A DNA stretch of 64,000 nucleotides, from positions 1,536,001 through 1,600,000 of the forward strand of contig CAXXJV010000001.1 in the NCBI GenBank assembly GCA_963663475.2. The letters are read 5' to 3'. This document shows positions 1,582-19,011 of the stretch, piece after piece (position 1 is the first letter of the stretch; each line of letters opens with the position of its first letter). This stretch comes from Candidatus Cloacimonadales bacterium. GTDB lineage: Bacteria > Cloacimonadota > Cloacimonadia > Cloacimonadales > JAFGVF01. The position numbers were made by a program, and so were the translations under genes. The notes beneath the pieces were generated by a model. The model saw nothing but the letters and a program-made list of their open reading frames with translations. It was not told where the DNA came from and did no database searches.

Positions 1582-1617
1582 AGAGAGCTTATCAGCGTGG
1601 TAAGCTCTCTTTTTTTA
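1582..1617 (+). terminator. Intrinsic terminator after tRNAs
   Basis: AGAGAGCTTA...TAAGCTCTCT followed by a T-run. Confidence 0.8.
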
Positions 1618-1700
1618 TGCAAAAATTAGTTTTATAGAAAAAAAGACTTGTCTAAATTTTACCTGAAAGCAATTATGGCATATGAAAATAAGGGGTAACT

Positions 1701-2333
1701 ATGAATAAAATTAAAACAATATTAGTAATACTTGTTGGCTTAATTGGATTAGTAGCTTGTGAAGAGGGCGGATCTATAAAGATAAACAATCAAACTAGTC
1801 ATAATGTTTATACAGAAATCGAGGGAGTTGAATATACCATAAGTGGATCTGCTTCTAAAAAAGTTAATGTTGATACAAGCAAAAAAATATTTTTATTCTC
1901 AGATGGTCAGACTACTACTGACATAAAATTGGTGGGGGAGACCTATAGAATTTGGGATGAATATAATGATTTTCCTCAAGATTATACAAGCATAACAGTT
2001 ACTGCAGGAGAAACTTATAATATATACTGTAGTCCTACAACTGCTTCAGTTAAAATAGTAAATAATTCGAATAAGACTGTAGATAAGTTAAGTTATAGAA
2101 GTGTTAAACAATTTTCTGTTGGGGAATGGTTCTATATCACTTATGATCCTCCATTAGCAAATGGTCAATTCGCTTATTATCATCTAAATCCCCAAACTCA
2201 AGAAAATAGATTCTTTTATAATTTTAAAGTTGAAGGGCAAGACCAAGTTCTCTATTCTATCGGAGATGAGTTTGAAGGTGTAGAACTTTTTATTGATGAT
2301 CAACATCTGATAGTTATTGAAGAAAACGACTAA
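1701..2333 (+). CDS. Hypothetical lipoprotein (two Ig-like repeats)
   Basis: Lipobox LVAC; repeated (S/A)(I/V)KI(N/V)N motif; GGGG RBS. Confidence 0.75.
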   Translation: MNKIKTILVILVGLIGLVACEEGGSIKINNQTSHNVYTEIEGVEYTISGSASKKVNVDTSKKIFLFSDGQTTTDIKLVGETYRIWDEYNDFPQDYTSITVTAGETYNIYCSPTTASVKIVNNSNKTVDKLSYRSVKQFSVGEWFYITYDPPLANGQFAYYHLNPQTQENRFFYNFKVEGQDQVLYSIGDEFEGVELFIDDQHLIVIEEND

Positions 2334-2464
2334 TAAGGGTTCTTAACTAGGAGGGATTAAGCCCAAGAGTGAAGTAGTTTTTGTTATTTAAAGAATGAAC
2401 ACTCTCTCCTAGAATTCTACTTAAGTAATTTTGTTAAACCAACGATTTAACAGTGGAATAAGCC

Positions 2465-2809
2465 TCAGGAAAAGCCATTTTTGAACCTAATATAGATTAC
2501 TATAGCAAGGGCTATTAGAAGTAAAATAAAGATTATCCAAGAGATAATATCATTTTTAGACTTAGTAAGTTCTTTAAGCACTTCTTTATTAGTTCTGATG
2601 AAATCTTTAGGTAAGTCCTTATAGTTAGCATCATGAACTAACTTATTTCTCACACTGGCAATGAACCTAATTTTCTTAACTAAATCTGGAGCAAGTTTAT
2701 CTTCTACAGAAGTTAATTTGCTATGAAGTCCTTTGCCTTGAGCTCCATAGTTATTGACTAGAGCTTTTTCAATTTTTTTATTATATTCAATTACTTTCCA
2801 TTTATTCAT
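2465..2809 (-). CDS. Small HEPN/DUF4145-like protein with C-terminal TM helix
   Basis: GKGLHSKL...IASVRNKLVH (R-N-x3-H) and a hydrophobic tail. Confidence 0.6.
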   Translation of the reverse strand: MNKWKVIEYNKKIEKALVNNYGAQGKGLHSKLTSVEDKLAPDLVKKIRFIASVRNKLVHDANYKDLPKDFIRTNKEVLKELTKSKNDIISWIIFILLLIALAIVIYIRFKNGFS

Positions 2810-2860
2810 TTTAATAATCCTTAACTCTCCAATAAAGTTCTACTAGACTACTTGTGTTTA

Positions 2861-3093
2861 ACCCAAATAGTGCAGTAGACCTTTGTGAATAGCACTATAT
2901 TCTTCTGCAAAATTAACTTCCATAATTTCTCCGAATATATAAATTATATGCGTAAAAATTCTGTAAGCTATTTTGCTAGAATAATCTGCACTCTTCACTA
3001 AAGCTCTACAACACTACTTGTGTTTACCCCAAATAGTGCAGTAGAGCTTTAGAGAATATTCTGCTATTCTCAAAGAACTATTACATTATTAGG
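2861..3093. repeat. GTAG-type REP doublet (REPIN/MITE-like): full copy (2861-3024) plus short copy (3026-3093)
   Basis: ACCCAAATAGTGCAGTAGACCTTTGTGAATAG...CTCTTCACTAAAGCTCTAC inverted ends; near-identical to the copies at 5008, 12779 and 56141. Confidence 0.85.
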
Positions 3094-3111
3094 CTTTAAG
3101 ATAATATAAGT

Positions 3112-4482
3112 CTAATCATGGATAATGTCAAGACTTTTCCACTTACCTTGTTTGAATCTGTGCAAGAGGACTAAAGAAAAACTTAAGAAGGTGAAGACAA
3201 GAACTCCCCAGCCTGTAACAGCAGACGCATTAAAAATCTTGAGACTAATAAAGAGATTAGCTACTGCTAACCAGTGCATTATTATAAAAGCGAACATAGT
3301 CCAATGAGTATCACCTGCTCCTCGTAAGACTCCTACAAAGGCAACTGTAACAGCATCTGCTAAAACATAGATAGTCGCAAGTCTTAGCATTGATTTAGCC
3401 ATAGGGAAGGCCTGGTGGAATACCTCAGATGCTTGGTCAGGTTTAAAGAAGTTTACTAGCATTTCTGTTGCAAATACATAGAGTAAGAAAATAATTGCTG
3501 AATATACTAAGCCAGTAATTACTCCAGAATAGGCTACCTTAGTAGCTGATTTGATATCTCTAGCTCCCATATACTTGCCAACAAGACTGGTTACTGCTAT
3601 TTGAATTCCTACTAATGGCATAAAAGAAACATAATCCCAATTAAACATTATGGTTGAGGCGGTAGCTGCTATCTCTCCTTCAGAATGAAGTAGTAAAATC
3701 ATAGTAGTAAAGGCAGAGAGACTCATAAAGCTTTCAAACCCTTGGGGAAGTCCATACCAGAGTAGTTTTTTCATAATTTCAGGATTAAACTTAAAGGATT
3801 TAATTATCTGAAAATCTATTCTATTCTGCTTGGAAAAATAGAGAATAAAGAGAACTAAAACCCCAACAAAAGCTCCGATGTTAGTTCCAAGAGCAGCACC
3901 TCGGATTCCTAAAGCTGGAAAACCAAACTTACCAAAGATTAAGGTGTAGTTACAGATAACATTGGTTACTAATGATACTAGGGCTGCTATCATTATGTAT
4001 TTGGTTTTTCCTAAACCAGAGAAAAAACTAGATAAAGCTGTCCTTAATAATAAGAAGATTGAACCCCAAAGCAAGATAGAAAAATAGTCTATCTGAAGAG
4101 GTAATTGACCAGCAGGGATATTCATATGCTGAAAGACTAATCTAGCTAAAGGGGTTGTTATCAGTAGAATTGGGTAAGATATTAAGGCAATTAAAATAGC
4201 TTGAAAAGTAGTCACTGCTGATCTTGTTTTAAAACCAGCTCCTAAATATTGAGCTACTAAAGCTGTTGAATAACTAATTAATCCAGTGAAAAATATCGTG
4301 AAAGTTGCTAAATAAACTCCTCCTCCTAAGGAAGCATTCATGTGATCAGGACTTAACTTAGCTAAGAATATCCTATCCGTAAAAGTCATTAACGCATCAC
4401 ATCCCATAGAAGCAAACATGGGAAGGGCTACTAGTAACATTTCAATTATTCCACCTTTTGGGTGATTATTTTCATTCATCAT
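3112..4482 (-). CDS. MATE family efflux transporter
   Basis: About 12 TM helices; FGKFGFPALGIRGAALGT and GVLRGAGDT motifs. Confidence 0.92.
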   Translation of the reverse strand: MMNENNHPKGGIIEMLLVALPMFASMGCDALMTFTDRIFLAKLSPDHMNASLGGGVYLATFTIFFTGLISYSTALVAQYLGAGFKTRSAVTTFQAILIALISYPILLITTPLARLVFQHMNIPAGQLPLQIDYFSILLWGSIFLLLRTALSSFFSGLGKTKYIMIAALVSLVTNVICNYTLIFGKFGFPALGIRGAALGTNIGAFVGVLVLFILYFSKQNRIDFQIIKSFKFNPEIMKKLLWYGLPQGFESFMSLSAFTTMILLLHSEGEIAATASTIMFNWDYVSFMPLVGIQIAVTSLVGKYMGARDIKSATKVAYSGVITGLVYSAIIFLLYVFATEMLVNFFKPDQASEVFHQAFPMAKSMLRLATIYVLADAVTVAFVGVLRGAGDTHWTMFAFIIMHWLAVANLFISLKIFNASAVTGWGVLVFTFLSFSLVLLHRFKQGKWKSLDIIHD

Positions 4483-4730
4483 TTTTTTACCTCAATAACA
4501 ATTTATCAGTCAAATGACAGAAAACTTCAACTGGTATTTTGGGCAAGAAAGAAATAAATAAAATAGTTAGTTGACTGTTGAGAATAGGAGGATCTGCACT
4601 CTTCTCTAAAGCTCTATTGCACCATTTAGGTTAAAATAGAAACTAGCTCTTTGGGTAATAATTATCTGATCAAGAAATTTACATAACTCAAGTAAAAAGC
4701 TATTTGAAATTCTACAAAGATTCTTGTAGC

Positions 4731-4807
4731 ATCCTTAATCCTTCCTTTACGGTCTTTCGATGAAAGTCCGCTTTTCATCGAAAGACCGTAAAGGAAGGGT
4801 TAAGGAT
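4731..4807. repeat. 35-bp-stem hairpin repeat (second copy at 55970-56046)
   Basis: ATCCTTAATCCTTCCTTTACGGTCTTTCGATGAAA-loop-TTTCATCGAAAGACCGTAAAGGAAGGGTTAAGGAT. Confidence 0.85.
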
Positions 4808-4812
4808 GGATT

Positions 4813-5290
4813 AACCAAAATAATACAGTAGACCTTTGCGAATAGCTCAATATTCTTCTGCAAAATTAAGATCTATAATTTCTCTGAATATATATTATAT
4901 GCGTCAAATTTCTGTAAGCTAATTTGCAAGAATAATCTGCACTCTTCACCGGTGATAGTTAGCTTTAGCCAAGTATTACTAAAGTTCTACTGCACTATCT
5001 GGCTTAAACCCAAATAGTGCAGTAGACCTTTGTGAATAGCACTATATTCTTCTGCAAAAGTAACTTCCATAATTTCTCCGAATATATAAATTATATGCGT
5101 CAAAATTCTGTAAGCTATTTTGCTAGAATAATCTGCACTCTTCACTAAAGCTCTACTACACTATCTGGGTTAAAAAATTGATAAAAATATTGACAGATAA
5201 TTTTGAATAAAGCATATAAATTCTAATAATGCAGTAGCTTTTGAGAATAGAAGAATATTCATCACTAAAATCCTACTGCACCATTAGGGA
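4813..5290. repeat. Tandem GTAG-REP doublets (4813-5004, 5008-5170, short copy 5222-5290)
   Basis: Same terminal arms and internal spacer as the 2861 copy; the first copy carries an extra ~30-bp insertion. Confidence 0.85.
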
Positions 5291-5318
5291 TAAAAGACAT
5301 AAAAATGAGGTGTGAAAA

Positions 5319-5891
5319 ATGAAAAAGTTTTTGATTACATTCTATATAATCCTAATAAGTTCTTTATTGCCTGCAAAATCAGGTCTTACAACAGAATCTT
5401 ATATTTATCAGAACCAGAATAATAGATACAAGAAGTATGGCTTTATGCTTGCCTATGCACCTGTAAATGAGGCTTATTCAGCTAAAATATACGGCATTCC
5501 TGAAAATAACATGCTCTCGACTAATTTTTCTTATTTTTCCCTGTATCATGCCAGGAAAGGATCTTTTAAAGGTGGTGAATTTGATGATTCTCCTCTTGAT
5601 TTCTGGGTCAAGGAAGACAAGGATATCTATAGAAAATATATTGTTAATCTAGGTGTTACTCAAGGCTTAACTGCTCAAGGAGGCATATTTTTAGCTTATT
5701 ATGCTGGACTTGGTCTATCTGAGGAATTTCACCAATATAAATCTTCTTATGGAAATTATTGGTTTAAAAATGAAAATAAAATGATAGGGGATATTGGTAT
5801 AGAGTTAAATGGCAGATTGAGTTTAATCAACTTTGGTATAGGATTTTCATATCAATCCCTATATTATCTGTCAGCAGGATTGGAGTTTTAG
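5319..5891 (+). CDS. Putative small outer-membrane beta-barrel protein
   Basis: Signal peptide, alternating Gly/aromatic strands, C-terminal YLSAGLEF. Confidence 0.65.
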   Translation: MKKFLITFYIILISSLLPAKSGLTTESYIYQNQNNRYKKYGFMLAYAPVNEAYSAKIYGIPENNMLSTNFSYFSLYHARKGSFKGGEFDDSPLDFWVKEDKDIYRKYIVNLGVTQGLTAQGGIFLAYYAGLGLSEEFHQYKSSYGNYWFKNENKMIGDIGIELNGRLSLINFGIGFSYQSLYYLSAGLEF

Positions 5892-6077
5892 GGGAAAATA
5901 TAAAAAACAGTAGAACTTGTCGATGACTATATGTTCTACTGTGATAGATGGTTCATTTTTAATCCTGTAATATTGTTGATAATTACTAAATCAAGGTCTT
6001 TAACAATATAATGCGATATTCCTCTTGCGAACTATATTTATCTGCTCTCTTCACAAAAGTTCATCTACATCATCACC

Positions 6078-8150
6078 TTAGAAAGAGTACTCAACCATTA
6101 ACTTGGTCCAAAAGTTATTATGTAACTCATCAGTTCTTTCATTAATAGTATCTGCACCGTAGGAATAACCACCAGACAACTCAATATATTTGTTAAATTT
6201 AAAGAGAAGATTTGCATATAGCCCAATATGATCAGTGTAATTATACTCGTGTCCATTTGCATCAATATATTTACCAGAATAATTATTATAGCGAATACCT
6301 GTTGTTGATTTCAATATTTTCCCAATATTCATGGTAAGATCGCCATTTATATATTGGTATCCGTTATCAAATTCTTCTTTTTCTGATGAAGATAAATCTA
6401 AGTAGTTCATAGATGTCATTGAGAGGGATAGATCATACCTTTCCATAAATGTATATTGGGCATTTACTGTATTTTTGTAAAGCTTATAAGTCTCATTAAA
6501 ATTATAAATTAGGGATTTACCAAAGGCTGTTGAATAGGTAAAAGATAAATTACTATAATTACTCCAAGTAAGTGATTGTCTAAGGTCTGGTTCATTGAAT
6601 ATCTCGCCAATATACTCTTGTTGATTAAATCTAAGTCCTAAGTCATAGTTAAATCCATTCATAGTTGAAGCCGTTAGGTAGGATGTAGCAGATAAACTTC
6701 TCTTATCTCCATTTTCATGAAAGAAACTGTAATCAATCCAAGAATCAAGGCCAAGATATCTTAATTTTTTAGTATCAAAAATATATTCAAAACTGCTTGT
6801 TAATAGAGTGTAATTTGTTTCATCTATTCTCCCCATATCTGCTGTGAAATTCTTTGATGAAGAGTTACTTGCCAACATTATATTATATTTTGGAGCATAA
6901 TAGTTATATTCTAAGGAAAAATCAATCCCATTAATTGTTTCTGTATCATCTGCTTTATTAGTAGATAAATAAGAATCAATCATTAAGCTATTTTTATCAT
7001 TAAAATAGATTACAGGTTTTATCTGTAGCAAACTATTAGTATAGTCATCTTGAGGATTAAATCTATTTAAAGTTGTAAGCTGTAAACTCCAATTATCGCC
7101 CTTAGGCTTAACATTTGCTACAAAATATTGATCTCCAGTATTATATATTTTACCATTGTCGGTTAGCTTTTCATCTTTAGCATAGAGAAGACCATAGCTA
7201 ATGTTTTGAAGATTCCCTGTAAACTTGGTGGCTATTTCAGGTTGTTGAATATGCCTAGTATAAAACATATAATTAGGTATATCAAAGATAGCATAATCTT
7301 CAGTAAAAAAATATCTATTCTCACTTAAATAAGGAGCAAACTCCAAATTATAGACATCTTGTTCATAATCCAAAGGTACTTCTGAGTAGTCCGGATTAAC
7401 AGATGCTTTGAAATTTAAAGCAGAAGATGGATTATAAGCAAAATCTAATCCAGAATATTTAGCTCCATACTTACTATCCTGATCTAAGTTATTATGCATA
7501 TATGAAGTATATCCTCGACTTGTAATATTAAGCTTACTACGGACAATATCAGATAAAATAATATCAAATCCTTTATCGAAATAGTCATTGCTCATCTTAA
7601 TATCAGTATATGGCCCACTATAAAGATGGTACTTCTTGGTATAAGCTCTGGAAAATGCTAACTTCCACTTGTGAACCTCTAGGTTAGGGTAATTTAGGTC
7701 ATTAAAGGGAATAGTGAAATCAACAATCCACTCACTATCTGTGCAAAAAGTCTTATAAGAGTAATTACTATCCCAATCATTACTGATATTAAGATCAGAT
7801 TTTCTTACTCCATCTAATAAAGAACCATTTGGATAAGCATAATAGATATAACCAAATCTATCCTTTGGTGAAACAACAACTTGCACTCTTAAATAATCCG
7901 CTTTCTGATAAGTCTCATGATTAACTAAATTTCCAAAAATCATATCTTCATTCTTAGCCATCACAGCGTGAATGTAGAGATTCTCTTTGTCATAAGAAGC
8001 ACTAATGCTTATTGGTTCAATAAGTTCAAGCATATCATTAGGTTCATTTCTCATAAATTGACTTTGATCTGCTGTGAGGATGTTTTCTCCCCAAATTGAT
8101 GCACATAACAACCATAGTAAATTACCCAACAATATTTTAAAACTAGCCAT
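6078..8150 (-). CDS. DUF5916-like protein: CBM9-like N-domain plus outer-membrane beta-barrel
   Basis: Signal peptide; WIVDFTIPFNDLNY; ASVNPDYSEV...ENRYFFTE...FYTRHI motifs; C-terminal VEYSF. Confidence 0.75.
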   Translation of the reverse strand: MASFKILLGNLLWLLCASIWGENILTADQSQFMRNEPNDMLELIEPISISASYDKENLYIHAVMAKNEDMIFGNLVNHETYQKADYLRVQVVVSPKDRFGYIYYAYPNGSLLDGVRKSDLNISNDWDSNYSYKTFCTDSEWIVDFTIPFNDLNYPNLEVHKWKLAFSRAYTKKYHLYSGPYTDIKMSNDYFDKGFDIILSDIVRSKLNITSRGYTSYMHNNLDQDSKYGAKYSGLDFAYNPSSALNFKASVNPDYSEVPLDYEQDVYNLEFAPYLSENRYFFTEDYAIFDIPNYMFYTRHIQQPEIATKFTGNLQNISYGLLYAKDEKLTDNGKIYNTGDQYFVANVKPKGDNWSLQLTTLNRFNPQDDYTNSLLQIKPVIYFNDKNSLMIDSYLSTNKADDTETINGIDFSLEYNYYAPKYNIMLASNSSSKNFTADMGRIDETNYTLLTSSFEYIFDTKKLRYLGLDSWIDYSFFHENGDKRSLSATSYLTASTMNGFNYDLGLRFNQQEYIGEIFNEPDLRQSLTWSNYSNLSFTYSTAFGKSLIYNFNETYKLYKNTVNAQYTFMERYDLSLSMTSMNYLDLSSSEKEEFDNGYQYINGDLTMNIGKILKSTTGIRYNNYSGKYIDANGHEYNYTDHIGLYANLLFKFNKYIELSGGYSYGADTINERTDELHNNFWTKLMVEYSF

Positions 8151-8179
8151 GCTACTACTCCTTTTAGCTACAATTTACA

Positions 8180-9856
8180 TTATCCTACTTTAATCTCTCT
8201 ATTTATGTATCCTGAAATTATGTCTTGATGAGAAGTTATTATAATTGTCTTGGACTTGAATAAATCAAAGAGAAGACTTAAAATATTATTAGCATTTTCA
8301 ATATCTAAGTTTGCTACCGGCTCATCAAGAAGAATAATTTCTGGATTACAGAGAAAAAGTCTAGCAATAGCGATTCTCTGTTTTTCACCTCCAGATAACT
8401 TTTCTCCATAATTTCCTCTCAAGGAGTATAGTTCTTCATTAGTATTCAAATATTCAAGCTTTACTTTTTCTAATACATTTATCACTTCTGAATCGGTTGC
8501 TTTGGGATTACCATATCTGATATTCTCTATTAGAGGTAGATCATACATATAACTCTCTTGAGTTAAATAACCGATTTTTTTTCTAAGCAACTGAGCTGGT
8601 ATTGATTTGATTTCATAGTTGTTAAGTAAAAGAGAACCTTGATAATTATCCTCTAATTTTGTAAGTAAATTTAGAAGGGTTGTTTTTCCAGAACCACTTG
8701 CTCCTACGAAGGCAACTTTATCTCCAATATTTATATCAAAGGATAGATTGTCGATTATATAGTTATTATGAGCTGTGTCATGTTTGAAAGAGATATTTTT
8801 AAACTGAATTATTGGATTTGAGAAACGTGTAAATATATTTCCTTCTACTATATCGACTATTTCTGCTTTGTTTTCACAATCAGTAATTACTTGAGTAATT
8901 TTTCTATAGGAGACAAATGAGCTTATGATGGAATTATAATATCTTGTGATATTCATAAAAGGAAGATAAAATCTACCTAAATATTGAATGAATACTATTA
9001 AACCTCCTACAGATAATTCATTATTCTTTACTAAATTTATTCCTACTACTATTATGATAACATTTATGATTATCCGGGCACCACTGGTAAAGGGAAAAAT
9101 TAATAGATGTAAATTAAGTCCCTTCTTACCAGTCTGAACATATTCTGTTATTAAATTATTGAATAAACTATCCTCTTCGTTTTCTTTAATAAATAACTTA
9201 AATAATTTATAATCTTTAAAACGACTTATAATCGTCGATTTTATTTTTGACATTTGCTCTCGTTCAAGGTTTGATAAGGCATATTGCTTCTTCCCAAAAA
9301 AGTAACCATTAAAAATAACTAACGGGACAGGTATTAACATTATCAAAGTTAGTGATTTAGATAAGTTAAAACAAACGAACGCCATTATAATGGCAGTAAT
9401 CAAATCAACAACAATTCCATTGATTGGACTTATTATAATATCTCTAATTGCTTCCACATCTGAAATAATCAAGGTAGATGCCTCTCCAGATGTCATTTCT
9501 TTTAAATACTTCGGCTTTACCCTAAGTAACTTAGAATATAATGTTTTCCTAACATCAGCTTTAACCTTGTACCCATATAAGGTAACTAAATAACCTCGTA
9601 TTAAGGATACTATGAAGACCCCTAAGGAAACAATTAAATAAGCAATAACCAAGAAGTTAACTATTGACAAACTACTAAGATTATGAAGAAAACTCAGACT
9701 ATTCTCAATGAGATAATTACTAGTGCGAGATTTTCCAGTTAAGTTATCAATCAATATGCCAAATACTTGCTGAGGCAAGACAGTAACAAAAGATTCTAAG
9801 AATACTAAAAATACTATTATAATAAATGTAGGACTTTTAAGATATTTTAATAACAT
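8180..9856 (-). CDS. ABC transporter ATP-binding/permease (exporter, no C39 peptidase domain)
   Basis: N-terminal TM domain; GASGSGKTT, LSGGEKQR, ILLDEP. Confidence 0.92.
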   Translation of the reverse strand: MLLKYLKSPTFIIIVFLVFLESFVTVLPQQVFGILIDNLTGKSRTSNYLIENSLSFLHNLSSLSIVNFLVIAYLIVSLGVFIVSLIRGYLVTLYGYKVKADVRKTLYSKLLRVKPKYLKEMTSGEASTLIISDVEAIRDIIISPINGIVVDLITAIIMAFVCFNLSKSLTLIMLIPVPLVIFNGYFFGKKQYALSNLEREQMSKIKSTIISRFKDYKLFKLFIKENEEDSLFNNLITEYVQTGKKGLNLHLLIFPFTSGARIIINVIIIVVGINLVKNNELSVGGLIVFIQYLGRFYLPFMNITRYYNSIISSFVSYRKITQVITDCENKAEIVDIVEGNIFTRFSNPIIQFKNISFKHDTAHNNYIIDNLSFDINIGDKVAFVGASGSGKTTLLNLLTKLEDNYQGSLLLNNYEIKSIPAQLLRKKIGYLTQESYMYDLPLIENIRYGNPKATDSEVINVLEKVKLEYLNTNEELYSLRGNYGEKLSGGEKQRIAIARLFLCNPEIILLDEPVANLDIENANNILSLLFDLFKSKTIIITSHQDIISGYINREIKVG

Positions 9857-9973
9857 GAATATTCCTTAAGACATAATAATTTATTAAATGAAATTTTAAA
9901 ACAGGGTTATCGTCAAGTATAATTTCTAATTGCTGTAAAAAATACAAACAATTTTAATTAAATATTATGAATC

Positions 9974-10099
9974 CTATTTTGGATCAACAGGTATTTCAGA
10001 ATAACATGAATCTCCATCATTTTTCCACGTTTTGCAACCAGCACCGATATTGATCATTTGATCAAGTTCTATAATCTCAGGCTTTTCATAAGTTTCCAT
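9974..10099 (-). CDS. Putative RiPP precursor peptide, 41 aa: METYEKPEIIELDQMINIGAGCKTWKNDGDSCYSEIPVDPK
   Basis: AAGGAG RBS directly after the rSAM stop codon; ATG 10099, TAG 9974-9976; YxxPxI leader motif; Cys/Trp/Asp-rich core. Confidence 0.8.
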   Translation of the reverse strand: METYEKPEIIELDQMINIGAGCKTWKNDGDSCYSEIPVDPK

Positions 10100-10110
10100 T
10101 TTTTTCTCCT

Positions 10111-11406
10111 TTATATATTATTTTGATAACCCTCTTTATCAAATTCTGCTCCATTACAAAGAATTGTATTTATATATTCATCCATCTGGCTTTCCTCAAC
10201 TCGAATTATCCAAGCTGGGCAAATAGCGCAATGATATTTTTTATCACAATTATGACATTTAAAAGCTTGTTTTTTAACATTTTTATTTTTTAGTAATAAG
10301 TTAATTTTTTCCCCAATATCCATCCATGCCTTTTCTATAGAAATATTACTATTAGTCATGCTTATAGAAGGAATCCTCAACTGAACACATGGACTAATAT
10401 TTAATTCTGAATCAATAAAACAGGATGTAATTCCACCACCGCAAATCCAATCAATTTCCTTAAGTTGGGGTGGAATTGAATTTAACATTTTTTTTGAAAA
10501 TACTAAATTCTTCTCTCTATCTAGCGGTTCACTTGGTACTAGTTCTTTGATCCGATGAATTTCTTCAGGCAGTAAGTTCATAGATATCAAGTTTAAATCA
10601 GTTGGATCATTTGGTGGGCATATATTTGAACCATAATTGAACGGAATATTTAAATTAGCACTGATATCATAAATTTTTTTTATTATCTCTTTTGTTTCAG
10701 AATGTAACTGGGTTCGTGTTTGAATAGGGATATTGTTTTGTTTGAAAAATTTTATTGAATTCATTATCCGATTGAATGCTTCAGGCATCTTGGTAAAATA
10801 TTCATAAGATATATTATCATAACCATACAAAGAGATAGCAATCATTGATGGCTTTTTATCTATAAAACATTCTTTTAACTCTTCAGTTAAATGATACCCA
10901 TTTGTATATACTGTTATTTTAAATCCTAAAGAATAGGCATGTGAATATATTTCGCAAAAATCAGGGTGTAATGTTGCTTCTCCTCCAGTAAACAATAAAC
11001 TATAGCATCCAATCTTGGAAAGCTCCGTAATAAGCTCTTTAGTCCTTTCAGTATTAATGAAAGAAGATTGTTTTTTGTCTACATAACAATGCTTACACTT
11101 AAAATTACAGATATTTGTTAACTCAATGGTTGCATTTAGAATGTTCCTTTCTAATCTATTTTGGATAGTAATTTCATCAAAGATGTTATAATTTTGTTTT
11201 GCTAGACCATCAAAATTACCTTTTTCAAAGTTATTCAATAATTTTACAAATTCATCATAATCATGAATTAACATACTCTTTTCTATATTAAATATGGACA
11301 TTAACTTGCTTATACAGTCTTTTTTACTCAACCCAAGAGAATGGACTTGGAACATAATTATACTTGTTTTATTCAATTTCATAACTTTTTCATAGTTTTT
11401 ATACAC
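10111..11406 (-). CDS. Radical SAM/SPASM peptide maturase with N-terminal PqqD-like RRE (probable original start 11457, interrupted by TGA at 11431-11433)
   Basis: CNFKCKHC (CxxxCxxC), FTGGE, YTNG; SPASM CGGG...ISPC...CHNC...CAIC; RRE-like LNKTS...DYDEFVKLL. Confidence 0.9.
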   Translation of the reverse strand: MYKNYEKVMKLNKTSIIMFQVHSLGLSKKDCISKLMSIFNIEKSMLIHDYDEFVKLLNNFEKGNFDGLAKQNYNIFDEITIQNRLERNILNATIELTNICNFKCKHCYVDKKQSSFINTERTKELITELSKIGCYSLLFTGGEATLHPDFCEIYSHAYSLGFKITVYTNGYHLTEELKECFIDKKPSMIAISLYGYDNISYEYFTKMPEAFNRIMNSIKFFKQNNIPIQTRTQLHSETKEIIKKIYDISANLNIPFNYGSNICPPNDPTDLNLISMNLLPEEIHRIKELVPSEPLDREKNLVFSKKMLNSIPPQLKEIDWICGGGITSCFIDSELNISPCVQLRIPSISMTNSNISIEKAWMDIGEKINLLLKNKNVKKQAFKCHNCDKKYHCAICPAWIIRVEESQMDEYINTILCNGAEFDKEGYQNNI

Positions 11407-11518
11407 TAAAAATAACTCAACACCTATTTTTCATAATTTTAAATTTATGTATTGCATCAAAACTCCATTTTTTTTATTATGTTTCACTTATTTTCTTTTA
11501 GTTTATTAATGAGTTCTA

Positions 11519-11719
11519 TCAATTTTCTAAGTAATAGATTACACCATTAACCTCTATTAAAACAATATTTTCATTATTATCCTCATAAATAATGTGATAC
11601 TCCACATGCTCCAAATTAGATAAGATCATTTTATCAATTTGTACAAAATTAACTTGACTATAATTACATACAAAAAAAATAAATACACTAAGTAATAGAA
11701 AAAAAATAATCTTATTCAT
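11519..11719 (-). CDS. Small secreted/membrane protein (SQVN family, paralog at 36388-36525)
   Basis: Signal-like hydrophobic N-terminus followed by SQVN; GAGGA RBS. Confidence 0.65.
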   Translation of the reverse strand: MNKIIFFLLLSVFIFFVCNYSQVNFVQIDKMILSNLEHVEYHIIYEDNNENIVLIEVNGVIYYLEN

Positions 11720-11813
11720 GAAGTTCCTCTGTAATAATAAATGAGGAAAATTAAAAAGTCCCGCAAAGATATGTTATACTACTGTATAATAATAAATTAT
11801 AAAGGTATAGATA

Positions 11814-12812
11814 ATGGAAAGATATTATGATAGGGTGTATACAACCGCTAAAAAAGTAGCCTTTTTATATATAAAAAATGCAGATGATGTTGAAGATATT
11901 ATTCAGTTGACTCTTATGCAATTTTATTTAAACAAAGATAAAATTACTGAAGAAAAAATTTATAACTGGGTATTTACAGTTACTAAAAACTTCTGTATGC
12001 AGTATTTTCGTTCAAGGAAAAAAGAAGATGAGTTAAAAAAATCTTATATAATTGAGGCAAGTAGTAATTTATCCCATGATGATAATCAGGATAAAAAAAA
12101 TGAAGAAAATTTAATCATAATAGATATTGATCAGTATGGATTTATTAATAACAAAGATAAAGTTATTTTAAAAGATTATATTGATAAACATAATAGTATT
12201 TCTAAGCTAAGTAAAAGCTATAAAGTGAAAAAAAAGACTCTACAGAATAAGATAAACCTTTTATTGAAAGAGATTAAACTCTATCATATTATTCAGTCGC
12301 AACCTCATGTATTTGATGCTTTGCCAGGCACTAAATTATCCAGAAATATTAATAATTTCCTTAAAACTATCACTAAGGCGATTGAGACAAATGAGATAGA
12401 TAAATTAAAACACTATCTCAGTGACTGTAAAATAAACGATAGTATTGATAATTTATATGTTAAGGAAGTTTCTTCATACAGAATTCAAATTGTAGCATCA
12501 AATATTTATATGTTAATCGTAGGTTTTATAGATTTGGATGACCATGTTAAATTTTTTATGGCTCGATTTAAATTAATAAATAACTATACTTTGAAATTTA
12601 TTGAATTTCCCATCTTTCCTAAGAGAGTTGTTGCTCTTGATAAAAAATATGCAGAGGGGAAAGAAGGGTTAAAAGGACTTTCTGATGATAGAGGTGCTAG
12701 TAATATGAAGTTTGGAACTCCAGACACTATACTAGACAAAAGAATGGGTAAAGTTGTTCAAACAGAAAATGAATTTAAACCCAAAAATAAGGCAGTAGAT
12801 CTTTGTGAATAG
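11814..12812 (+). CDS. ECF-like sigma-70 factor with long C-terminal extension
   Basis: Region 2 pattern DVEDIIQ...WVFTVTKNFC; paralog at 36618. Confidence 0.75.
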   Translation: MERYYDRVYTTAKKVAFLYIKNADDVEDIIQLTLMQFYLNKDKITEEKIYNWVFTVTKNFCMQYFRSRKKEDELKKSYIIEASSNLSHDDNQDKKNEENLIIIDIDQYGFINNKDKVILKDYIDKHNSISKLSKSYKVKKKTLQNKINLLLKEIKLYHIIQSQPHVFDALPGTKLSRNINNFLKTITKAIETNEIDKLKHYLSDCKINDSIDNLYVKEVSSYRIQIVASNIYMLIVGFIDLDDHVKFFMARFKLINNYTLKFIEFPIFPKRVVALDKKYAEGKEGLKGLSDDRGASNMKFGTPDTILDKRMGKVVQTENEFKPKNKAVDLCE

Positions 12813-12943
12813 CAGAATATTCTTTTGCAATAGTAACTTACATAATTTTCATGAATTTATATATATTATATGGGTCAAAATTTTGTAAGCTATTTTGCCA
12901 GAATAATCTGCACTCTTCATCAAAGTTTACTGAACCATTTGGT
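12779..12943. repeat. GTAG-REP doublet overlapping the 3' end of the sigma gene
   Basis: GCAGTAGATCTTTGTGAATAGC...CTCTTCATCAAAGTTTACTG, with the same spacer as the other copies. Confidence 0.8.
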
Positions 12944-12950
12944 TAAAATG

Positions 12951-12984
12951 AAAAAAGGGTTATGAATTTAATCATAACCCTAAA
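12951..12984. terminator. Terminator between convergent sigma and OTCase genes
   Basis: AAAAAAGGGTTATGA-loop-TCATAACCCT. Confidence 0.7.
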
Positions 12985-13005
12985 TAGATTTTACGTTTCT
13001 ATTGA

Positions 13006-14007
13006 TTAGTCACCTAAAGTAGCAACCATAACAGCTTTAATAGTGTGCATTCTGTTTTCAGCTTCATCAAAGACAACTGAATTTTCAGATTCAAAAACTT
13101 CATTAGAAACTTCTTGAGAATCGATACCATACTTTTCAAATACTTCTTTACCAACAGTAGTATTTAAGTCATGGAAAGCAGGTAAACAGTGCATGAAGAT
13201 AGTTTCTTTTTTACCAGTCATATCCATCATAGCTTTATTAACTTGGAAAGGTTTAAGAAGGTTAATTCTTTGTTCCCAAACTTCAGCAGCTTCTCCCATT
13301 GAAACCCAAACATCAGTGTAAATAGCATCAGCGTCTTTAACACCAGCAGGGATATCTTCAGTAAGAGTAATTTTTGCACCAGTTTCTTTAGCTATTTCAT
13401 TACATTTAGCAACTAATTCATCAGTTGGGAAAAGTGATTTAGGAGCAACAATTCTGAAATCCATACCCATTTTAGCAGCACCAATCATGAGTGAATTACC
13501 CATATTATTTCTACCATCACCAACATAAGTGAAAACAACTTCATTAAGAGGTTTTTTGATATGTTCTTGGATAGTAAGTAAGTCAGCAAGAATTTGAGTT
13601 GGATGATATTCAGTAGTAAGACCATTCCAAACAGGAACGCCAGCATACTCAGCTAATTCTTCAACAACTGATTGGCCAAAACCTCTGTATTCGATGCCAT
13701 CATACATTCTTCCTAAAACACGAGCTGTGTCAGCCATAGATTCTTTATGACCAATTTGAGAACCTGAAGGTCCTAAATATGTTACATGAGCACCTTGATC
13801 ATAAGCTGCAACTTCAAAAGCACAACGGGTTCTGGTTGAAGATTTCTCAAAGATAAGAGCAATGTTTTTACCTTTAAGTCTAGCTTGTTCTGTTCCAGTA
13901 TATTTAGCTCTCTTTAAATCTCTTGCTAAGTCTAACAAATAATTGATTTCTTTTGGAGTGAAATCAAGTAATGTGAGGAAATTTCTGTTTCTTAAATTAA
14001 AAGCCAT
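13006..14007 (-). CDS. argF: Ornithine carbamoyltransferase (likely catabolic ArcB-type)
   Basis: STRTR, HPTQ and HCLP motifs; start [11 protein letters not shown] with AAGGAG RBS. Confidence 0.95.
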
Positions 14008-14602
14008 AATTAACTCCTTAATATATATTTTTCTAATTACCAAAAAATAGTAAGTAAATTTTATAGCAAGGAAATTTTTTGAGAAAGCTGAGAATTAGTA
14101 ATTAAGGGAACAAGATTAGTCATTATGAAGTTAATAAAAGTAACATATGACTTAGAAAGATAAAAGAACAAGTTGTAAATATACCCTGCAGTTTTTTTTA
14201 AAAATATTTTCAAAAAGTGGGACAAATTTGAAAAAGTGGACACTAGATATAAGTGAAGGGAAATTTCAATCGACAAATAGCAACCGACACCAAGAATGAC
14301 TGCTCAAATTAATCAATTGTTATTTAATACTTTAGATTTTAAAAGAGCTCAAATAGTGCACACTTATCATTAACTATCATATTAATTTCAACTTGACCCA
14401 AGAGAGCGCAATTTCTCGTATCCTGAAAGGTTTTAAAGAGGCTCAAGTTCAAGTCTGGTGGAAGAAAATAAGTAAATAATAAAATGTTTACGTAGTTTAT
14501 ATCCCTGAAAGGGATTAGTAATTTAGCCTGGGGTAAGCTACTCTCAGGAGCGTCACCCCAGGTCCAATATCCAAAACTAATACCAGAACCCTGTAAGGGT
14601 TT

Positions 14603-16265
14603 CAGGCTGTTGACAAACCTATTGTAATTAATAATATGATTTAATATAATACATAAAAAGTTGAATAATTAGCAATAAATATCTTGACATAATATACCCA
14701 TAATACTTTATTGTACAAGAGGTAAGATATGATTGAAAAAATAAATAGACAGACAGAAATTGAGATGGTAACCATCGAACAATTAGTAAAAGAAGACCAT
14801 CCTATAAGAAAAATTGACAAATATATAAATTTTGATTTTATATATGATAAAGTAAAACATTTGTATTGTTTGGATAACGGACGTCCAGGTATTGACCCTG
14901 TAAGATTCTTTAAAATGCTACTAATCGGATATTTATATGGGATTAAGTCAGAAAGAAAATTAGTTCTTGAAATAGAACATAGTACAGCCTTTAGGTGGTT
15001 TTTAGGTTATAAACTATTAGATAAGATACCTCACCATTCAGTTTTTAGCAAAAATCGACAAAGACGATTCAAGGATAGTTCAATATTTCAAGAAATTTTT
15101 GAAGATTTAGTCTTCATGGCACTGAAGTCTGATATGCTTGATGGCAAAGTATTATATACAGACTCTACACATACTAAAGCCAATGCAAATAACAAGAATT
15201 TCAGAAAAATAGAGGTTACCAAAACTCCCCAAGAATATGTTGGAGAATTAAATAAAGCAGTAAATGAAGATAGAGTAGCTCATGATAAGAAACCTTTCCC
15301 TGAAGCCGAGATTAAAGAAGAAACCAAGACAATAAAGCAAAGTACGACAGATCCAGATAGTGGAGAAATGAATCGTGAACGCAAGCCACGGGGTTTTTAT
15401 TATTTAGATCACAGAACAACAGATTCTCTCTTTAATATAATTACAGATGTTCATATAACTCCGGCTAATGTAAGTGATAGTACATGCTATATAGACAGGT
15501 TAAAATATCAGATTAACAGGTTTGGTTTTGATGTTGAAGCTGTGGGTTTAGATGCTGGTTATAATACAACATATATTTGTAAGGAACTATATGATTTAGG
15601 CATATTTGCAACAATGGGAAGAAGAAAAGCAGGAGGGAAAAAGCACTTTTTTAAGAAGAATAAGTTTAAATATGATAAAGATAAAGATATATGGATATGT
15701 CCTAATAATTGTATCTTAAAGTATTATACAACCACGAGAACAGGTTCAAAAGAGTATAAATCGTCAAAATCAGATTGTAAAAACTGTAAATATTTTGGGC
15801 AGTGTATAACTAATAAAAATGGAACTAAATCAATAAGAAATCATGTTTGGCAAAAATATAAAGATTGGGTTAAAGATAATACTAATAGTGAATATGGTAA
15901 GGAAATATATCGACGGCGAAAAGAAACTATAGAACGGAGTTTCGCTAATAGCAAAGAATTACACGGTTATCGATATGCTAAATTTAGGGGAATTGAGAAA
16001 ATGAAATTCCAAGCTTACATGACCGCTATAGCTCAAAATATCAAAAAAATGGCCAATATCCTCAGCAGACGTGGAGGTGGTGGAACCAATCCATTATCAA
16101 AATTTATTTTTTCACAAATGAAGTATTATATTTACATTCTGAAGTTCCAAATCAGTAAAATTAACATAAAAAAAGGCAAAACATAAATGACTCTTCAGAT
16201 TTATTTAAATTGCTAAAAACAGCGTAAATTTCTATTTAAAAAAGAGGGGGTTTGTCTACTACCTG
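14603..16265 (+). mobile_element. IS1182-family insertion sequence (1663 bp)
   Basis: IRL CAGGCTGTTGACAAACC and IRR GGTTTGTCTACTACCTG (14/17 match); flanking 17-bp direct repeat GAACCCTGTAAGGGTTT at 14586-14602 and 16266-16282. Confidence 0.92.
14729..16186 (+). CDS. IS1182-family DDE transposase
   Basis: EDHPIRKID, GRPGIDP, TDSTHTKANAN, STTDPD, LDAGY, RRKETIERSFA motifs. Confidence 0.95.
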   Translation: MIEKINRQTEIEMVTIEQLVKEDHPIRKIDKYINFDFIYDKVKHLYCLDNGRPGIDPVRFFKMLLIGYLYGIKSERKLVLEIEHSTAFRWFLGYKLLDKIPHHSVFSKNRQRRFKDSSIFQEIFEDLVFMALKSDMLDGKVLYTDSTHTKANANNKNFRKIEVTKTPQEYVGELNKAVNEDRVAHDKKPFPEAEIKEETKTIKQSTTDPDSGEMNRERKPRGFYYLDHRTTDSLFNIITDVHITPANVSDSTCYIDRLKYQINRFGFDVEAVGLDAGYNTTYICKELYDLGIFATMGRRKAGGKKHFFKKNKFKYDKDKDIWICPNNCILKYYTTTRTGSKEYKSSKSDCKNCKYFGQCITNKNGTKSIRNHVWQKYKDWVKDNTNSEYGKEIYRRRKETIERSFANSKELHGYRYAKFRGIEKMKFQAYMTAIAQNIKKMANILSRRGGGGTNPLSKFIFSQMKYYIYILKFQISKINIKKGKT

Positions 16266-16810
16266 GAACCCTGTAAGGGTTTAATATAATGCCAACAAGG
16301 TAATATAATAAGTCTTTGATATACATGTGTTTTTATTAAACCCTTACAGGGTTACACTTTTTATATGCATCATAACCCAGGGTTGCGATACTTTCAGCAT
16401 CTTACCCTGGGCTAAACTATTTATCCCCTTTAGGGATATAAGACCTATCCCTTCAGGATTATGTCTTATTCAACTAAAAACTACTATCAACAGTACATTC
16501 TAATCCGTAAATTAGTGTAATACAATATCTAGTGCAAAATAATGCTAAATATTTTCCACCAGACTTGAACTTGAGCCTTTAAAAAGATAATCTCTCGAAA
16601 AAATATCAAAAAATGTCAAGAAAACATGAAATGTCCAATATTATCGACTTCTTTGAGGATAAGCTATTGGGGAGAGTGACTTGATGGTTGAACAGTCTCC
16701 AAGAAAAGCAGATAATCTTGAAATATATGTTGACAAATATAAAACAAAAAATATGGTGTATAATAACTAAAACAAAAAAAGAAGTTTTAACTAAATTAGG
16801 GGGATTGATT

Positions 16811-17203
16811 GTGGCAGATTTTGAAGTAGAGATGTTTATAGCATCTGGTCTTGGTGCTTTTTTTTCTATTTTTTTCTTATATAATTATGCAAGAGTTAGA
16901 AAAATTACTACAGATTTGAAGAAATATAAAAAAATAATTATATCGTCTAAGGGGATTGGTATAAGGGAAATTGCCGAGAAAATATTGAACTACAATGTGG
17001 CAATGAAACTGAGTATAGAAGGGGATAAGTTGATTTTTCAAGATAAACTATCTTTATCATCCTTATCGTGGGGCAAAATGTATATTATTACTGCCGAAGA
17101 GAGCAATATCAATCTATATTATAGAAATACCTTAGGTTTTTATAATGTTTATAAATTTGAGACACGTGAGATGGAGAATATCATTAAAATAATTGTGTCA
17201 TAA
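16811..17203 (+). CDS. Hypothetical membrane-anchored protein
   Basis: GTG start with G-rich RBS; single N-terminal TM; TTGACA-N16-TATGGT at 16730-16757. Confidence 0.55.
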   Translation: MADFEVEMFIASGLGAFFSIFFLYNYARVRKITTDLKKYKKIIISSKGIGIREIAEKILNYNVAMKLSIEGDKLIFQDKLSLSSLSWGKMYIITAEESNINLYYRNTLGFYNVYKFETREMENIIKIIVS

Positions 17204-17247
17204 TTCATGTTACTCTAATTTACTCAACTAATAGTTTTGCTAATTAA

Positions 17248-19011
17248 TTAATTTAGGAAATTCCAAGACATCAAGACAGTGATAGATTGAGGAATAGTCC
17301 TATATCCAGCAATAACTTGTTCATCAAGAATATTCTTCCAATAAAGATTAATTTCAAAAAGTTTAGTAATTTGGAAACCAAAATATAAATCTAAGAGAGA
17401 GGATTCTGGGTGGAGAAGTTCAAGTTCTTGGTCAAACACTAAATAAGAATCAAAGAAGTGGTAGGCAGCTCCAACTTTAATATAGTTATTGTGGTTCACA
17501 TCCCTAGCAATTTCAAATGAGTTAGTTAGATTTGCTTTTGGTAGATAGTGAATATTTTCATTAGTATAGTCTTGATAAAAGCTCATTTGTGATGTTAAAT
17601 TAAAGGCATATTTTCCATAAGATTGGGTAAATTGGCCTTGAAACTGAGTTATGAGAGCTTGAAAATCTTGTTTATAAACAGTATTTAAGAGTTTAGTTTC
17701 AATTATCGAGTTTCCCAGAGTTAAAGCTAGACTAAGAGATTTTGATGTATACTTTAAAGATAATCCACTATTATTCTTTTCATTAAGATAGTAGATTGGC
17801 AGACTTAACTCTTGGCCTGTATCAGGGTCAATACCAGGGGAATAACCCTTAATAAGGTAGTTTTTCTGGATACTTTCTTTAAAGTTAGTAAAAGCAGTTA
17901 AAGACATATTTTCTTGAAAATTATAGTTAATGTCAGAATTAGTGATTAGCTGATAAGGATGAGTAAGTATAAGTCTATTAGTAAGATTAAACTTGTCATA
18001 ATTAGATTTTAGGGAAAGGTCTAGTAAATGGTCAATATCAGAAGAAAGGGAGTTTATTTCTTGACTATAGAAGTCTGTTTTGCCTAGAAAAGCTTCATAG
18101 TTAAAGTTTGCTTGCCAGTAATCAAAGTTTAAATCTTTACTCAGGAGAATTTGCAATTTATTTCTTTCTAAAGTCTTATCAGAAATTCCTTTATAAGTTT
18201 CAGAAAGATACTTAAGACCGAAATTGACTATATTATTTTTATAAAGGGCAGAGAGGCTTTGGCTATTATCTTCAAAGATAGAAGTTTTTAGCATAAAGGC
18301 AGGGGATAGTCGATGAAAAGGACCTTCATAAGCAATAGAATTGAAAGCAATATCTAAGCTAGAGTTAGAAAAAGGAATAAGAATATTAGCAGAGGAATTG
18401 GAAGCTAGCTCAGGTCCGTAAAAGAAGTCTCCTTTAGCAAAATTCATTCTGAAGTCTAAATTAAATCTATCCAAGAATTTATTCTTTTTGAGGGCAAAAT
18501 AACCAGTTCCCAAATCATAATCTCCAGTTGATGCCACAACTTCAATTGCTGTAACAGGTAGTTGATAATAGTCCTTAGTTAAATCAATAAAATAATCATC
18601 TTGAGATTCTTGATAGAACCTATTATAATTTTGCAATTTTAGGTAACTTGGATAGAGGGAATTAAGTTCGGTAAAGTTATCTCTTCTAATATGATAATTA
18701 TCACTAACTAAACCGAAGAGATGTCCTTGAATAGACCAATATAATCCTTTATTCTCATCAGCAATAAAGTTCCTTCTGCTTTCAGTCTTGTAGTCTTCTA
18801 CCTTAGAAAAAAGATCTAAATAATCAGATCTATCAAGTTTTTTATCTACATTTGCTAGAGAGTCAATAACTGCCTGGAGGCCAAGAGTATCACTGGCTAC
18901 TTCTTGTCCACTTAAAGAATCATTATCTGTTGGTAAAGCAAGATCTTGAGACCAGGCAAGATTTAGGACAAAGATAAGAATGATAATAAGAAGATATATT
19001 TTAAACTTCAT
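17248..19011 (-). CDS. Putative porin / outer-membrane beta-barrel
   Basis: Signal peptide, amphipathic strands, C-terminal WKNIL...MSWNFLN. Confidence 0.7.
   Translation of the reverse strand: MKFKIYLLIIILIFVLNLAWSQDLALPTDNDSLSGQEVASDTLGLQAVIDSLANVDKKLDRSDYLDLFSKVEDYKTESRRNFIADENKGLYWSIQGHLFGLVSDNYHIRRDNFTELNSLYPSYLKLQNYNRFYQESQDDYFIDLTKDYYQLPVTAIEVVASTGDYDLGTGYFALKKNKFLDRFNLDFRMNFAKGDFFYGPELASNSSANILIPFSNSSLDIAFNSIAYEGPFHRLSPAFMLKTSIFEDNSQSLSALYKNNIVNFGLKYLSETYKGISDKTLERNKLQILLSKDLNFDYWQANFNYEAFLGKTDFYSQEINSLSSDIDHLLDLSLKSNYDKFNLTNRLILTHPYQLITNSDINYNFQENMSLTAFTNFKESIQKNYLIKGYSPGIDPDTGQELSLPIYYLNEKNNSGLSLKYTSKSLSLALTLGNSIIETKLLNTVYKQDFQALITQFQGQFTQSYGKYAFNLTSQMSFYQDYTNENIHYLPKANLTNSFEIARDVNHNNYIKVGAAYHFFDSYLVFDQELELLHPESSLLDLYFGFQITKLFEINLYWKNILDEQVIAGYRTIPQSITVLMSWNFLN

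Follow-up and report, generated by a model that had tools for sequence, protein, structure and literature searches.

A candidate RiPP precursor gene next to an RRE-fused radical SAM/SPASM enzyme in a gene cassette of a Candidatus Cloacimonadales bacterium

Gene content of the locus

The window analysed here is a 64,000-nucleotide stretch of the genome of a Candidatus Cloacimonadales bacterium (GenBank assembly GCA_963663475.2, contig CAXXJV010000001.1, forward-strand positions 1,536,001 to 1,600,000). It carries a cassette of five genes, which encode a short peptide, a radical SAM enzyme (hereafter the maturase), an ABC exporter, a secreted protein and a protein resembling sigma-70/ECF factors (Table 1). 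The initial annotation had pointed to the peptide ORF and to an AAGGAG ribosome-binding site in front of it, and both exist as described, with exactly the translation that had been given, METYEKPEIIELDQMINIGAGCKTWKNDGDSCYSEIPVDPK; the strand, which it did not state, is the minus strand. Its characterization of the ORF as hidden holds with respect to the 60-aa cutoff and to nothing else, since the exact sequence and three variants are already present in public protein collections.

Table 1. Features of the cassette (positions in the window)
Feature	Position	Strand	Remarks
Five-gene cassette, 6.7 kb	6079..12788		No other part of window 1..24000 has a match at the G002 locus; 93% identity
690-aa secreted protein	6078..8150	minus	N-terminal signal-like segment; ends ...YSF
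ABC exporter, 558 aa, fused permease and ATPase	8180..9856	minus	Pfam ABC_membrane 11-294 and ABC_tran 369-515 only
Peptide precursor gene (candidate)	9974..10099	minus	ATG at 10099, TAG stop ending at 9974; 41 codons and stop
AAGGAG ribosome-binding site	10106..10111	minus	6 nt 5' of the peptide ATG; also in G002
RRE-fused radical SAM/SPASM maturase	10111..11457	minus	448 codons from ATG 11457, TGA at codon 9
In-frame TGA, maturase codon 9	11431..11433	minus	AGA (Arg) in relatives; natural polymorphism
Sigma-70/ECF-like protein, 332 aa	11814..12812	plus	Divergent; region 2 only and a long C-terminal part

The stop-to-stop frame of the peptide contains a single ATG and no other start codon. 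The first two bases of the AAGGAG are the last two of the TAA that ends the maturase gene (10113..10111), and the distance from the maturase stop to the peptide gene is 11 nt; given this overlap, the maturase and peptide genes can be considered operonic and coupled. Residues 1-21 of the peptide form the putative leader, in which the YxxP-type motif is indeed present as Y4-x-x-P7-x-I9 (here Y4-E-K-P7-E-I9). The core, residues 22-41 (CKTWKNDGDSCYSEIPVDPK), has two cysteines, Cys22 and Cys32, and the acidic residues D28, D30, E35 and D39. At the possible cleavage mark GA/G of the initial annotation, residues G19-A20-G21 correspond to G-A-A in G002, a sister species of the same genus, and position 21 is either G or A among the variants described below. 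Promoter and terminator scans gave matches at chance level, the spacer between the peptide and exporter genes had no unusual fold (z -0.5) and Rfam had no match. A 66-aa ORF upstream of the maturase gene (11519..11719) was not counted as a gene; it has no counterpart among the G002 ORFs of at least 30 aa.

The membrane domain of the exporter begins at residue 11, and its best NCBIfam matches are to the last ~470 positions of exporters that do bear a peptidase; no C39 peptidase domain, the kind that accompanies double-glycine leaders, was found on it with Pfam or NCBIfam. No leader protease is encoded in the cassette, nor is there a kinase-like gene by NCBIfam and Pfam. The 690-aa protein has no Pfam or NCBIfam match even at E 10, and its AF2 model, built from a two-row alignment, is unusable (pLDDT 27.3). 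Its Atlas look-alikes, at 0.97, are DUF5916 clusters, and it is possibly an outer-membrane protein of the DUF5916 type. The sigma-like protein, the candidate regulator, has ~10 paralogues across the genome (25-38% identity) and travels with the cassette in G002.

The extent of the cassette was defined by blastn of window positions 1..24000 against 20 kb around the G002 locus. Its flanks are formed here by a MatE gene, an unknown gene, an ornithine carbamoyltransferase gene and an IS transposase gene, and in G002 by genes for a CitMHS transporter, an M20 peptidase and AbiEii, which are unrelated to those of the window. As the cassette matches and the flanks are unrelated in the two species, the five genes constitute a discrete, mobile cassette. 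One of the six other species of the genus that were searched has it, and with P0003, a 40%-identical relative of the maturase, as the query, two of 232 genomes of the phylum gave a match, both of them in the genus of the window bacterium. Another species of the genus has a weak radical SAM match (G006:C1:2249057-2249992, E 9.7e-31) with three in-frame stops, which may be a decayed radical SAM gene.

Direct repeats of ~140 nt around the cassette (5012-5150 and 12785-12925) were considered as attachment sites; the idea was dropped because the repeat is dispersed throughout the genome, with well over 150 copies among the matches listed, on both contigs. An IS-type DDE transposase gene (DDE_Tnp_1_6, DUF772; 14729-16186, plus strand) lies 2 kb from the cassette. 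Farther along the window there is an Mla-type lipid transport operon (19078-23998, minus strand) for an ABC ATPase, MlaE, MlaD and an auxiliary lipoprotein, which fits a diderm cell envelope.

Conservation of the peptide gene

The peptide ORF is a real, conserved coding gene. In G002, an ORF of 41 codons occupies the same position behind an enzyme gene that is 86% identical to that of the window, and the ribosome-binding site and its spacing are kept as well. The two peptide ORFs differ by eight synonymous and seven non-synonymous changes (dN/dS 0.16, Fisher p 0.0013); the other genes of the cassette give dN/dS values of 0.11 (exporter), 0.16 (690-aa protein), 0.22 (enzyme) and 0.37 (sigma-like protein). 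The spacer 3' of the peptide ORF, with 93 of 133 columns identical in G002, is less conserved than the ORF itself. Conservation of the ORF in related loci, on which the initial annotation had made its proposal depend, is observed in the sister species.

Contigs of the public runs X3, X5, X6 and X14 have no differences inside the peptide ORF and up to nine in the enzyme gene. Four distinct versions of the peptide, which form one cluster, were found in protein collections: the window's own (5 contigs), a W25C variant (P0046, 3 contigs), that of G002 and one more. Positions 17, 21, 23, 24, 25, 36 and 38 vary among them, K23 being replaced by Arg in G002, whereas residues 1-16, Cys22, K26-E35 (KNDGDSCYSE), P37 and D39-K41 are invariant. 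The window stretch was found in 20 listed runs from 12 studies, namely an isolate-like set and metagenomes of feces, manure, wastewater, compost and landfill.

The peptide is not named by any model of NCBIfam or Pfam, and a phmmer search of 1.84 billion representatives returned P0046 and four long repeat proteins, the latter judged unrelated. A profile HMM built from 67 peptides of distant loci (see below) placed the window ORF at rank 2 among 77,575 short frames of the genome; this is a weak match (10.5 bits, E 1.8), which gains weight because the ORF is the one that adjoins the related enzyme.

The maturase

The maturase matches the Pfam Radical_SAM family (PF04055, 2.4e-18). Its CX3CX2C cysteines, C100, C104 and C107, are invariant, and seven SPASM-type cysteines are conserved (C339, C357, C401, C404, C410, C413 and C434 in G002 numbering); the SPASM model PF13186 gave no score on the window maturase. 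In an AF2 model of the intact G002 orthologue (mean pLDDT 89.2, N-terminal block 84-95), the barrel is preceded by three strands (6-11, 14-19 and 24-28) and three helices (30-39, 45-56 and 60-78), a beta3-alpha3 unit (residues 6-78) that is predicted to have the winged-helix topology of an RRE. When aligned with hhalign to the stand-alone PqqD proteins of distant relatives, the fused N-terminus was in register, although the match was weak (probability 24.6%, E 8e-4); the isolated domain had no PqqD match in NCBIfam. The best Foldseek matches of the model, SkfB, SuiB, CteB and TigE, are all RRE-bearing peptide maturases, at 12-18% identity, and the nearest solved structure by sequence is that of SkfB, a thioether former (5.8e-11). 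The association of a YxxP leader with an RRE-bearing radical SAM enzyme, as initially proposed, is thus supported by the modelled N-terminus and also by the same motif in the peptides of relatives.

The maturase scores far under every curated NCBIfam cutoff, for example 51.5 bits against 300 for SkfB, 46.1 against 850 for AlbA, 45.5 against 625 for StsB, and 51.6 and 44.5 against 400 for ScmF and ScmE, respectively. No NCBIfam or Pfam model names its family, and it belongs to none of the curated families tested, among them the thioether maturases SkfB, AlbA, StsB, PapB and the SCIFF maturase; triceptide and streptide maturase models are absent from the best 25 of the 57 NCBIfam families matched. 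The earlier statement that the chemistry of the peptide is not assignable from sequence holds.

A stop codon in the maturase gene

The TGA at codon 9 of the maturase gene was not mentioned in the initial annotation. It is found in this genome, in X3 (near-identical) and in X5, which comes from another study and has two other differences; X6, X14, the otherwise identical metagenome contig L083 and G002 carry AGA instead. Recoding of TGA was rejected: 141 of the 1297 long ORFs end in TGA, and treating TGA as a sense codon adds only 3% to long-ORF length. The longest maturase ORF under translation table 11 starts at GTG 11406 and encodes 431 aa. Placed on the structural model, the stop at codon 9 would delete RRE strand beta1, and a restart at GTG 11406 would also delete most of beta2. 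With a stop inside the leader-binding domain, the pathway may be impaired in this genome; with an RRE strand lost, production becomes doubtful, and we regard it as slightly the less probable outcome that this strain still makes the mature product. In X6, which has AGA at codon 9, a single nucleotide is missing from an A5 tract at 11386, in the RRE-coding part of the gene (one contig, depth 20.8); if real, this is a second, independent frameshift lesion.

Related enzymes and their peptides

Among the candidates of a search of 5.8 billion proteins there were 45 relatives of the maturase at E <=0.001, and only three clusters among them (98%, 86% and 40% identity) are full-length with the fused N-terminal domain. 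For more distant relatives (25-37% identity), the best 80 genome loci were surveyed; they come mostly from Acidobacteriota and also from Chloroflexota, Bacillota, Zixibacteria, Planctomycetota and Myxococcota. Reading such homologous loci for small ORFs, as the initial annotation had suggested, yielded a matching ORF with the shared leader motif and Cys in 68 of the 80 (67 by a stricter pattern and L003, where Ala replaces Pro, by eye); a loose leader pattern gave a small same-strand ORF in 69 of the 80. In the loci whose neighbouring ORFs were inspected, the position of the peptide gene varies: it starts 22 nt after the enzyme gene in L020, overlaps the end of the enzyme gene in L023 and precedes the enzyme gene in L001 and L003.

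These ORFs have in common a Y-x-x-P-x-[ILV] leader and a Cys at a fixed spacing from it. Since only ORFs with Y/W-x-x-P and with K, N, D or W after a Cys were collected, the YxxP and first Cys positions are invariant partly by construction; beyond the pattern, conservation extends to L-R-P-E-E-A-V-L-G, G-P, the later Cys residues and G-S. In an alignment of 69 peptides, Lys follows the first Cys in 64, three Cys are present in 65, the peptide ends in Gly-Ser in 53 and the core lacks any acidic residue (Asp/Glu) in 55. The distance from Tyr to Cys is 20 in 66 of the peptides; it is 21 in a single one and falls to 18 in both window-type peptides. None of the six relatives' peptides that were compared with NCBIfam matched a model; the stand-alone PqqD proteins in the relatives' loci match lasso-type PqqD models.

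The large unnamed family that these loci represent (L001-L080, e.g. L020:7345-7521 and L023:2216-2362) combines radical SAM/SPASM enzymes with PqqD, an HprK-like kinase and a methyltransferase or S26-like peptidase, and it has precursors of the form ...YExPxLxxISLRPEEAVLGxCK..., three Cys and a C-terminal Gly-Ser. The conserved C-terminal Ser beside a kinase gene suggests phosphorylation. A Bacillota variant (L001:5457-5564 and L003:1719-1826) has the core ...LGCWNCGGSSGGSC, with neighbours that encode a HemN-like radical SAM protein, a stand-alone PqqD, a SPASM enzyme, an HprK-like protein and a B12-binding radical SAM protein.

Two loci come from the same order as the window. In G152, the enzyme gene is followed by a peptide of the Cys-Lys type that ends in Gly-Ser. 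In G020, which belongs to another family, a 39-aa ORF (L164:902-1021, MEYSTPEVIAVSL...CEDPDEDCSTWRWS) with a Y-S-T-P-E-V leader and an acidic core with two Cys ends inside the start of a 514-aa RRE-radical SAM/SPASM gene. In a tree of 33 enzymes, drawn with a midpoint root for display only, the window type (the window maturase, P0001, G002 and P0003) forms a separate clade (support 100/99) on a long stem (1.49). By path length, the closest rows are enzymes of the Bacillota and Cys-Lys types, and the fork that joins those two groups is only moderately supported (84/73).

Comparison with known systems

The systems that make sactipeptides and ranthipeptides (SkfA/SkfB, CteA/CteB of the SCIFF type and PapA/PapB) have the same succession of an N-terminal RRE, a radical SAM domain and a Cys-rich C-terminal part (SPASM/twitch), and likewise have a small Cys-containing precursor beside the enzyme and often an ABC exporter; SkfB and CteB are, as noted, among the best structural matches of the window-type maturase. 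However, that maturase falls far below the curated cutoffs, the window peptide has two Cys only, and its leader is of the lasso type, YxxP, in contrast to the HIxxI that a recent survey (PMC12710340) gives for sactipeptides. Streptide (SuiA/SuiB) shares the RRE-radical SAM-SPASM architecture, SuiB has the best TM-score (0.61), and Lys and Trp both occur in the window core. However, K23 and W25 both vary among the window-type variants, and the identity is 13%.

Lasso peptides and linear polyphosphorylated peptides (LPPs) share the Y-x-x-P-x-[ILV] motif near the N-terminus, and the RRE in the relatives' loci is, as in those systems, a stand-alone PqqD. According to Popov et al. (2026, PMC13381572), the RREs of lasso peptides and LPPs bind [Y/W]xxPx[L/V/I/F/A], and recognition depends mainly on the aromatic residue, in agreement with the earlier identification of this motif as the RRE-binding leader of lasso peptides. 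Lasso leader families are also the nearest named Atlas look-alikes of the window peptide, at 0.82 and 0.81, which we treat as a lead only. In contrast to lasso and LPP systems, the cassette has no lasso cyclase, B2 protease, SpI-type peptidase or kinase, and its RRE is fused to a radical SAM enzyme, a type of protein that PMC13381572 does not mention. The absence of a lasso cyclase, which had been noted from the start, was borne out by a Pfam scan of 22 ORFs in window 1..24803, in which neither an Asn-synthase-type cyclase nor a transglutaminase-like B2 protease was found; the scan covered the peptide ORF and 20/21 listed ORFs of at least 80 aa, with ORFs 19262..19522 and 23058..23615 (both plus strand) and short frames outside it.

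The Acidobacteriota-type clusters, with their radical SAM, PqqD, HprK-like kinase and S26-like peptidase genes, resemble SynChlorMet (NCBIfam TIGR04248-04251). Their maturases are the nearest relatives that were found (25-37% identity), and their peptides have the leader motif and Cys-Lys. In contrast to the window type, these peptides mostly have three Cys (65/69) and a Gly-Ser end (53/69) and mostly lack acidic residues, and kinase- and peptidase-like genes are part of the clusters. The window type is set apart by its fused RRE, a leader that is shorter by two residues, an acidic core with two Cys and a clade with a long stem. With respect to SynChlorMet itself, the window maturase is below the ScmE and ScmF cutoffs and the cassette is without a kinase-like gene.

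Proposed pathway and alternative explanations

We regard it as very likely that the peptide is a RiPP precursor (A peptide) of the adjoining RRE-fused radical SAM enzyme. The best explanation of the locus as a whole, and in our view a probable one, is that it encodes the precursor of an uncharacterised radical-SAM-modified RiPP. In such a pathway, the ~21 N-terminal residues would act as the leader, with Y4-x-x-P7-x-I9 docking in strand conformation against the beta-sheet and alpha3 of the winged-helix RRE at the N-terminus of the enzyme. Docking would place the core in the radical SAM/SPASM active site, and the fixed spacing between Tyr and Cys may serve as a ruler that puts the first Cys there. 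The enzyme would then most likely join the sulfur atoms of Cys22, the one core residue that does not vary anywhere in the superfamily (partly by construction of the pattern), and of Cys32 to a carbon of an acceptor residue, giving thioether macrocycles of the sactipeptide or ranthipeptide type. Export across the inner membrane would fall to the ABC exporter, with a possible role for the DUF5916-like protein in handling the product at the outer membrane.

The thioether part of this proposal, with Cys22 and Cys32 as donors, has close to an even chance of being right. It is favoured because a Cys starts every collected core (as the pattern required) and 65 of the 69 cores have three Cys, because thioether formers are among the solved structures closest to the enzyme in sequence and fold, and because aromatic positions are not conserved. 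Its rating is kept this low by a warning in PMC10288494 that the reaction of an uncharacterised radical SAM enzyme is unpredictable unless its identity to a known enzyme is very high. The acidic core of the window peptide would allow acceptors of the ranthipeptide type. With 55 of the 69 family cores free of Asp and Glu, a ranthipeptide-type link from Cys to Asp/Glu cannot be family-wide, and the acceptor chemistry may differ between branches.

We consider it extremely improbable that the peptide ORF is open merely by chance. The ORF is short, open frames are common in AT-rich DNA, and there is no RNA run among those listed; however, the dN/dS of 0.16 (p 0.0013), the conserved ribosome-binding site and spacing, the higher conservation of the ORF than of the spacer 3' of it and its fit to the family leader motif all argue for a gene. 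The peptide might also leave the cell unmodified by radical chemistry and act as a signal or bacteriocin, closed into a small hairpin by a Cys22-Cys32 disulfide, with the radical SAM enzyme working on something else. This would be in line with the likeness of the core to Cys-x-x-Trp-x6-Cys-Tyr hairpins of secreted repeat proteins (P0047, with lectin-like repeats, E 4e-6, and P0050, E 5e-4) and with an intact peptide gene next to an interrupted maturase gene. Such a peptide is nevertheless very unlikely, in view of its translational coupling to the maturase, a lasso-type leader with no signal peptide and the recurrence of the leader and enzyme pair in 68 of the 80 distant loci; moreover, the repeat-protein matches are multi-stretch matches to long proteins that are not relatives. 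P0050, a secreted protein of 434 aa, has four ...G-S-G-C-x-x-W-x-x-x-x-P-x-C-Y... repeats that resemble the window core, a likeness that we take to be convergence on a Cys hairpin and not homology.

Other alternatives retain the enzyme-substrate pair. The links might be C-C or C-O bonds on aromatic residues, either cyclophanes at W25-K-N or Y33-S-E or a streptide-like Lys-Trp crosslink, since W25 and Y33 stand in three-residue motifs of the core and the best structural matches include the Lys-Trp crosslinker SuiB (TM 0.61). Of the two cyclophane motifs named in the initial annotation, W-K-N is weakened by the natural variant P0046, in which W25 is Cys (3 contigs), and Y-S-E (Y33-S-E35) is invariant in all four variants. 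We nonetheless consider aromatic links unlikely: Arg replaces K23 in G002, three Cys are present in 65 of the 69 cores (the invariance of Cys22 being by construction of the pattern), and no triceptide or streptide maturase model appeared in the best 25 of the 57 NCBIfam families. A decaying cassette, with an inactivated maturase and no mature product in this strain, is compatible with a RiPP family and is a serious possibility, if one short of an even chance. It is in line with the TGA in this genome and in runs X3 and X5, from two studies, set against AGA in X6, X14, L083 and G002, with the deletion at 11386 in X6, with TGA being a genuine stop in this genome, with the lack of a Shine-Dalgarno sequence, as read by eye, 5' of GTG 11406 or ATG 11382, and with the presence of the cassette in just one of the six other species of the genus. 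On the other hand, the remaining maturase frame of 431 codons is intact, as are the peptide gene and the other cassette genes, and re-initiation 27 nt past the stop is possible. The reading that we prefer for the family, a radical-SAM-modified RiPP, applies to either state of this strain.

A broader reading joins several of these threads and is, as a whole, rather unlikely. The YxxP leader and the Cys at a fixed distance from it might define a large uncharacterised RiPP class, in which the radical SAM reaction takes place on Cys or on Cys-Lys/Arg and gives neither a sactionine nor a ranthionine. The Cloacimonadota cassette might then be a streamlined, horizontally moving offshoot of the class with an outer-membrane component of its own, its product an exported signal or weapon in anaerobic digesters that has been repeatedly switched off by early lesions in the maturase gene.

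Novelty and implications

Judged from its sequences, the system would work like known RRE-dependent radical SAM/SPASM RiPP systems, outside every curated family tested. It is distinguished by a lasso-type leader motif, a tiny enzyme clade, the company of an outer-membrane-like protein and a sigma-like gene, and a host in Cloacimonadota. Searches of the literature for SynChlorMet/GeoRSP or for the leader strings EEAVLG, PEEAVL and LRPEEA found no relevant paper. For Cloacimonadota and RiPPs, the literature searched held nothing beyond passing mention. No paper on the peptide/maturase family was found in that literature either, and supplementary precursor lists could already contain the family.

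Within the literature searched, this is the first concrete RiPP candidate found for Cloacimonadota. The locus offers a precise, testable enzyme-substrate pair for a radical SAM/SPASM clade that, in a set of 5.8 billion proteins, amounts to no more than three clusters at 90% identity, and this small clade is now tied to a much larger unnamed family across several phyla. According to a recent survey (PMC12710340), recognition motifs are mostly class-specific; this family unites a recognition motif of the lasso type with radical SAM chemistry. The natural TGA and AGA alleles of the maturase gene provide a ready comparison of non-producer and producer strains.
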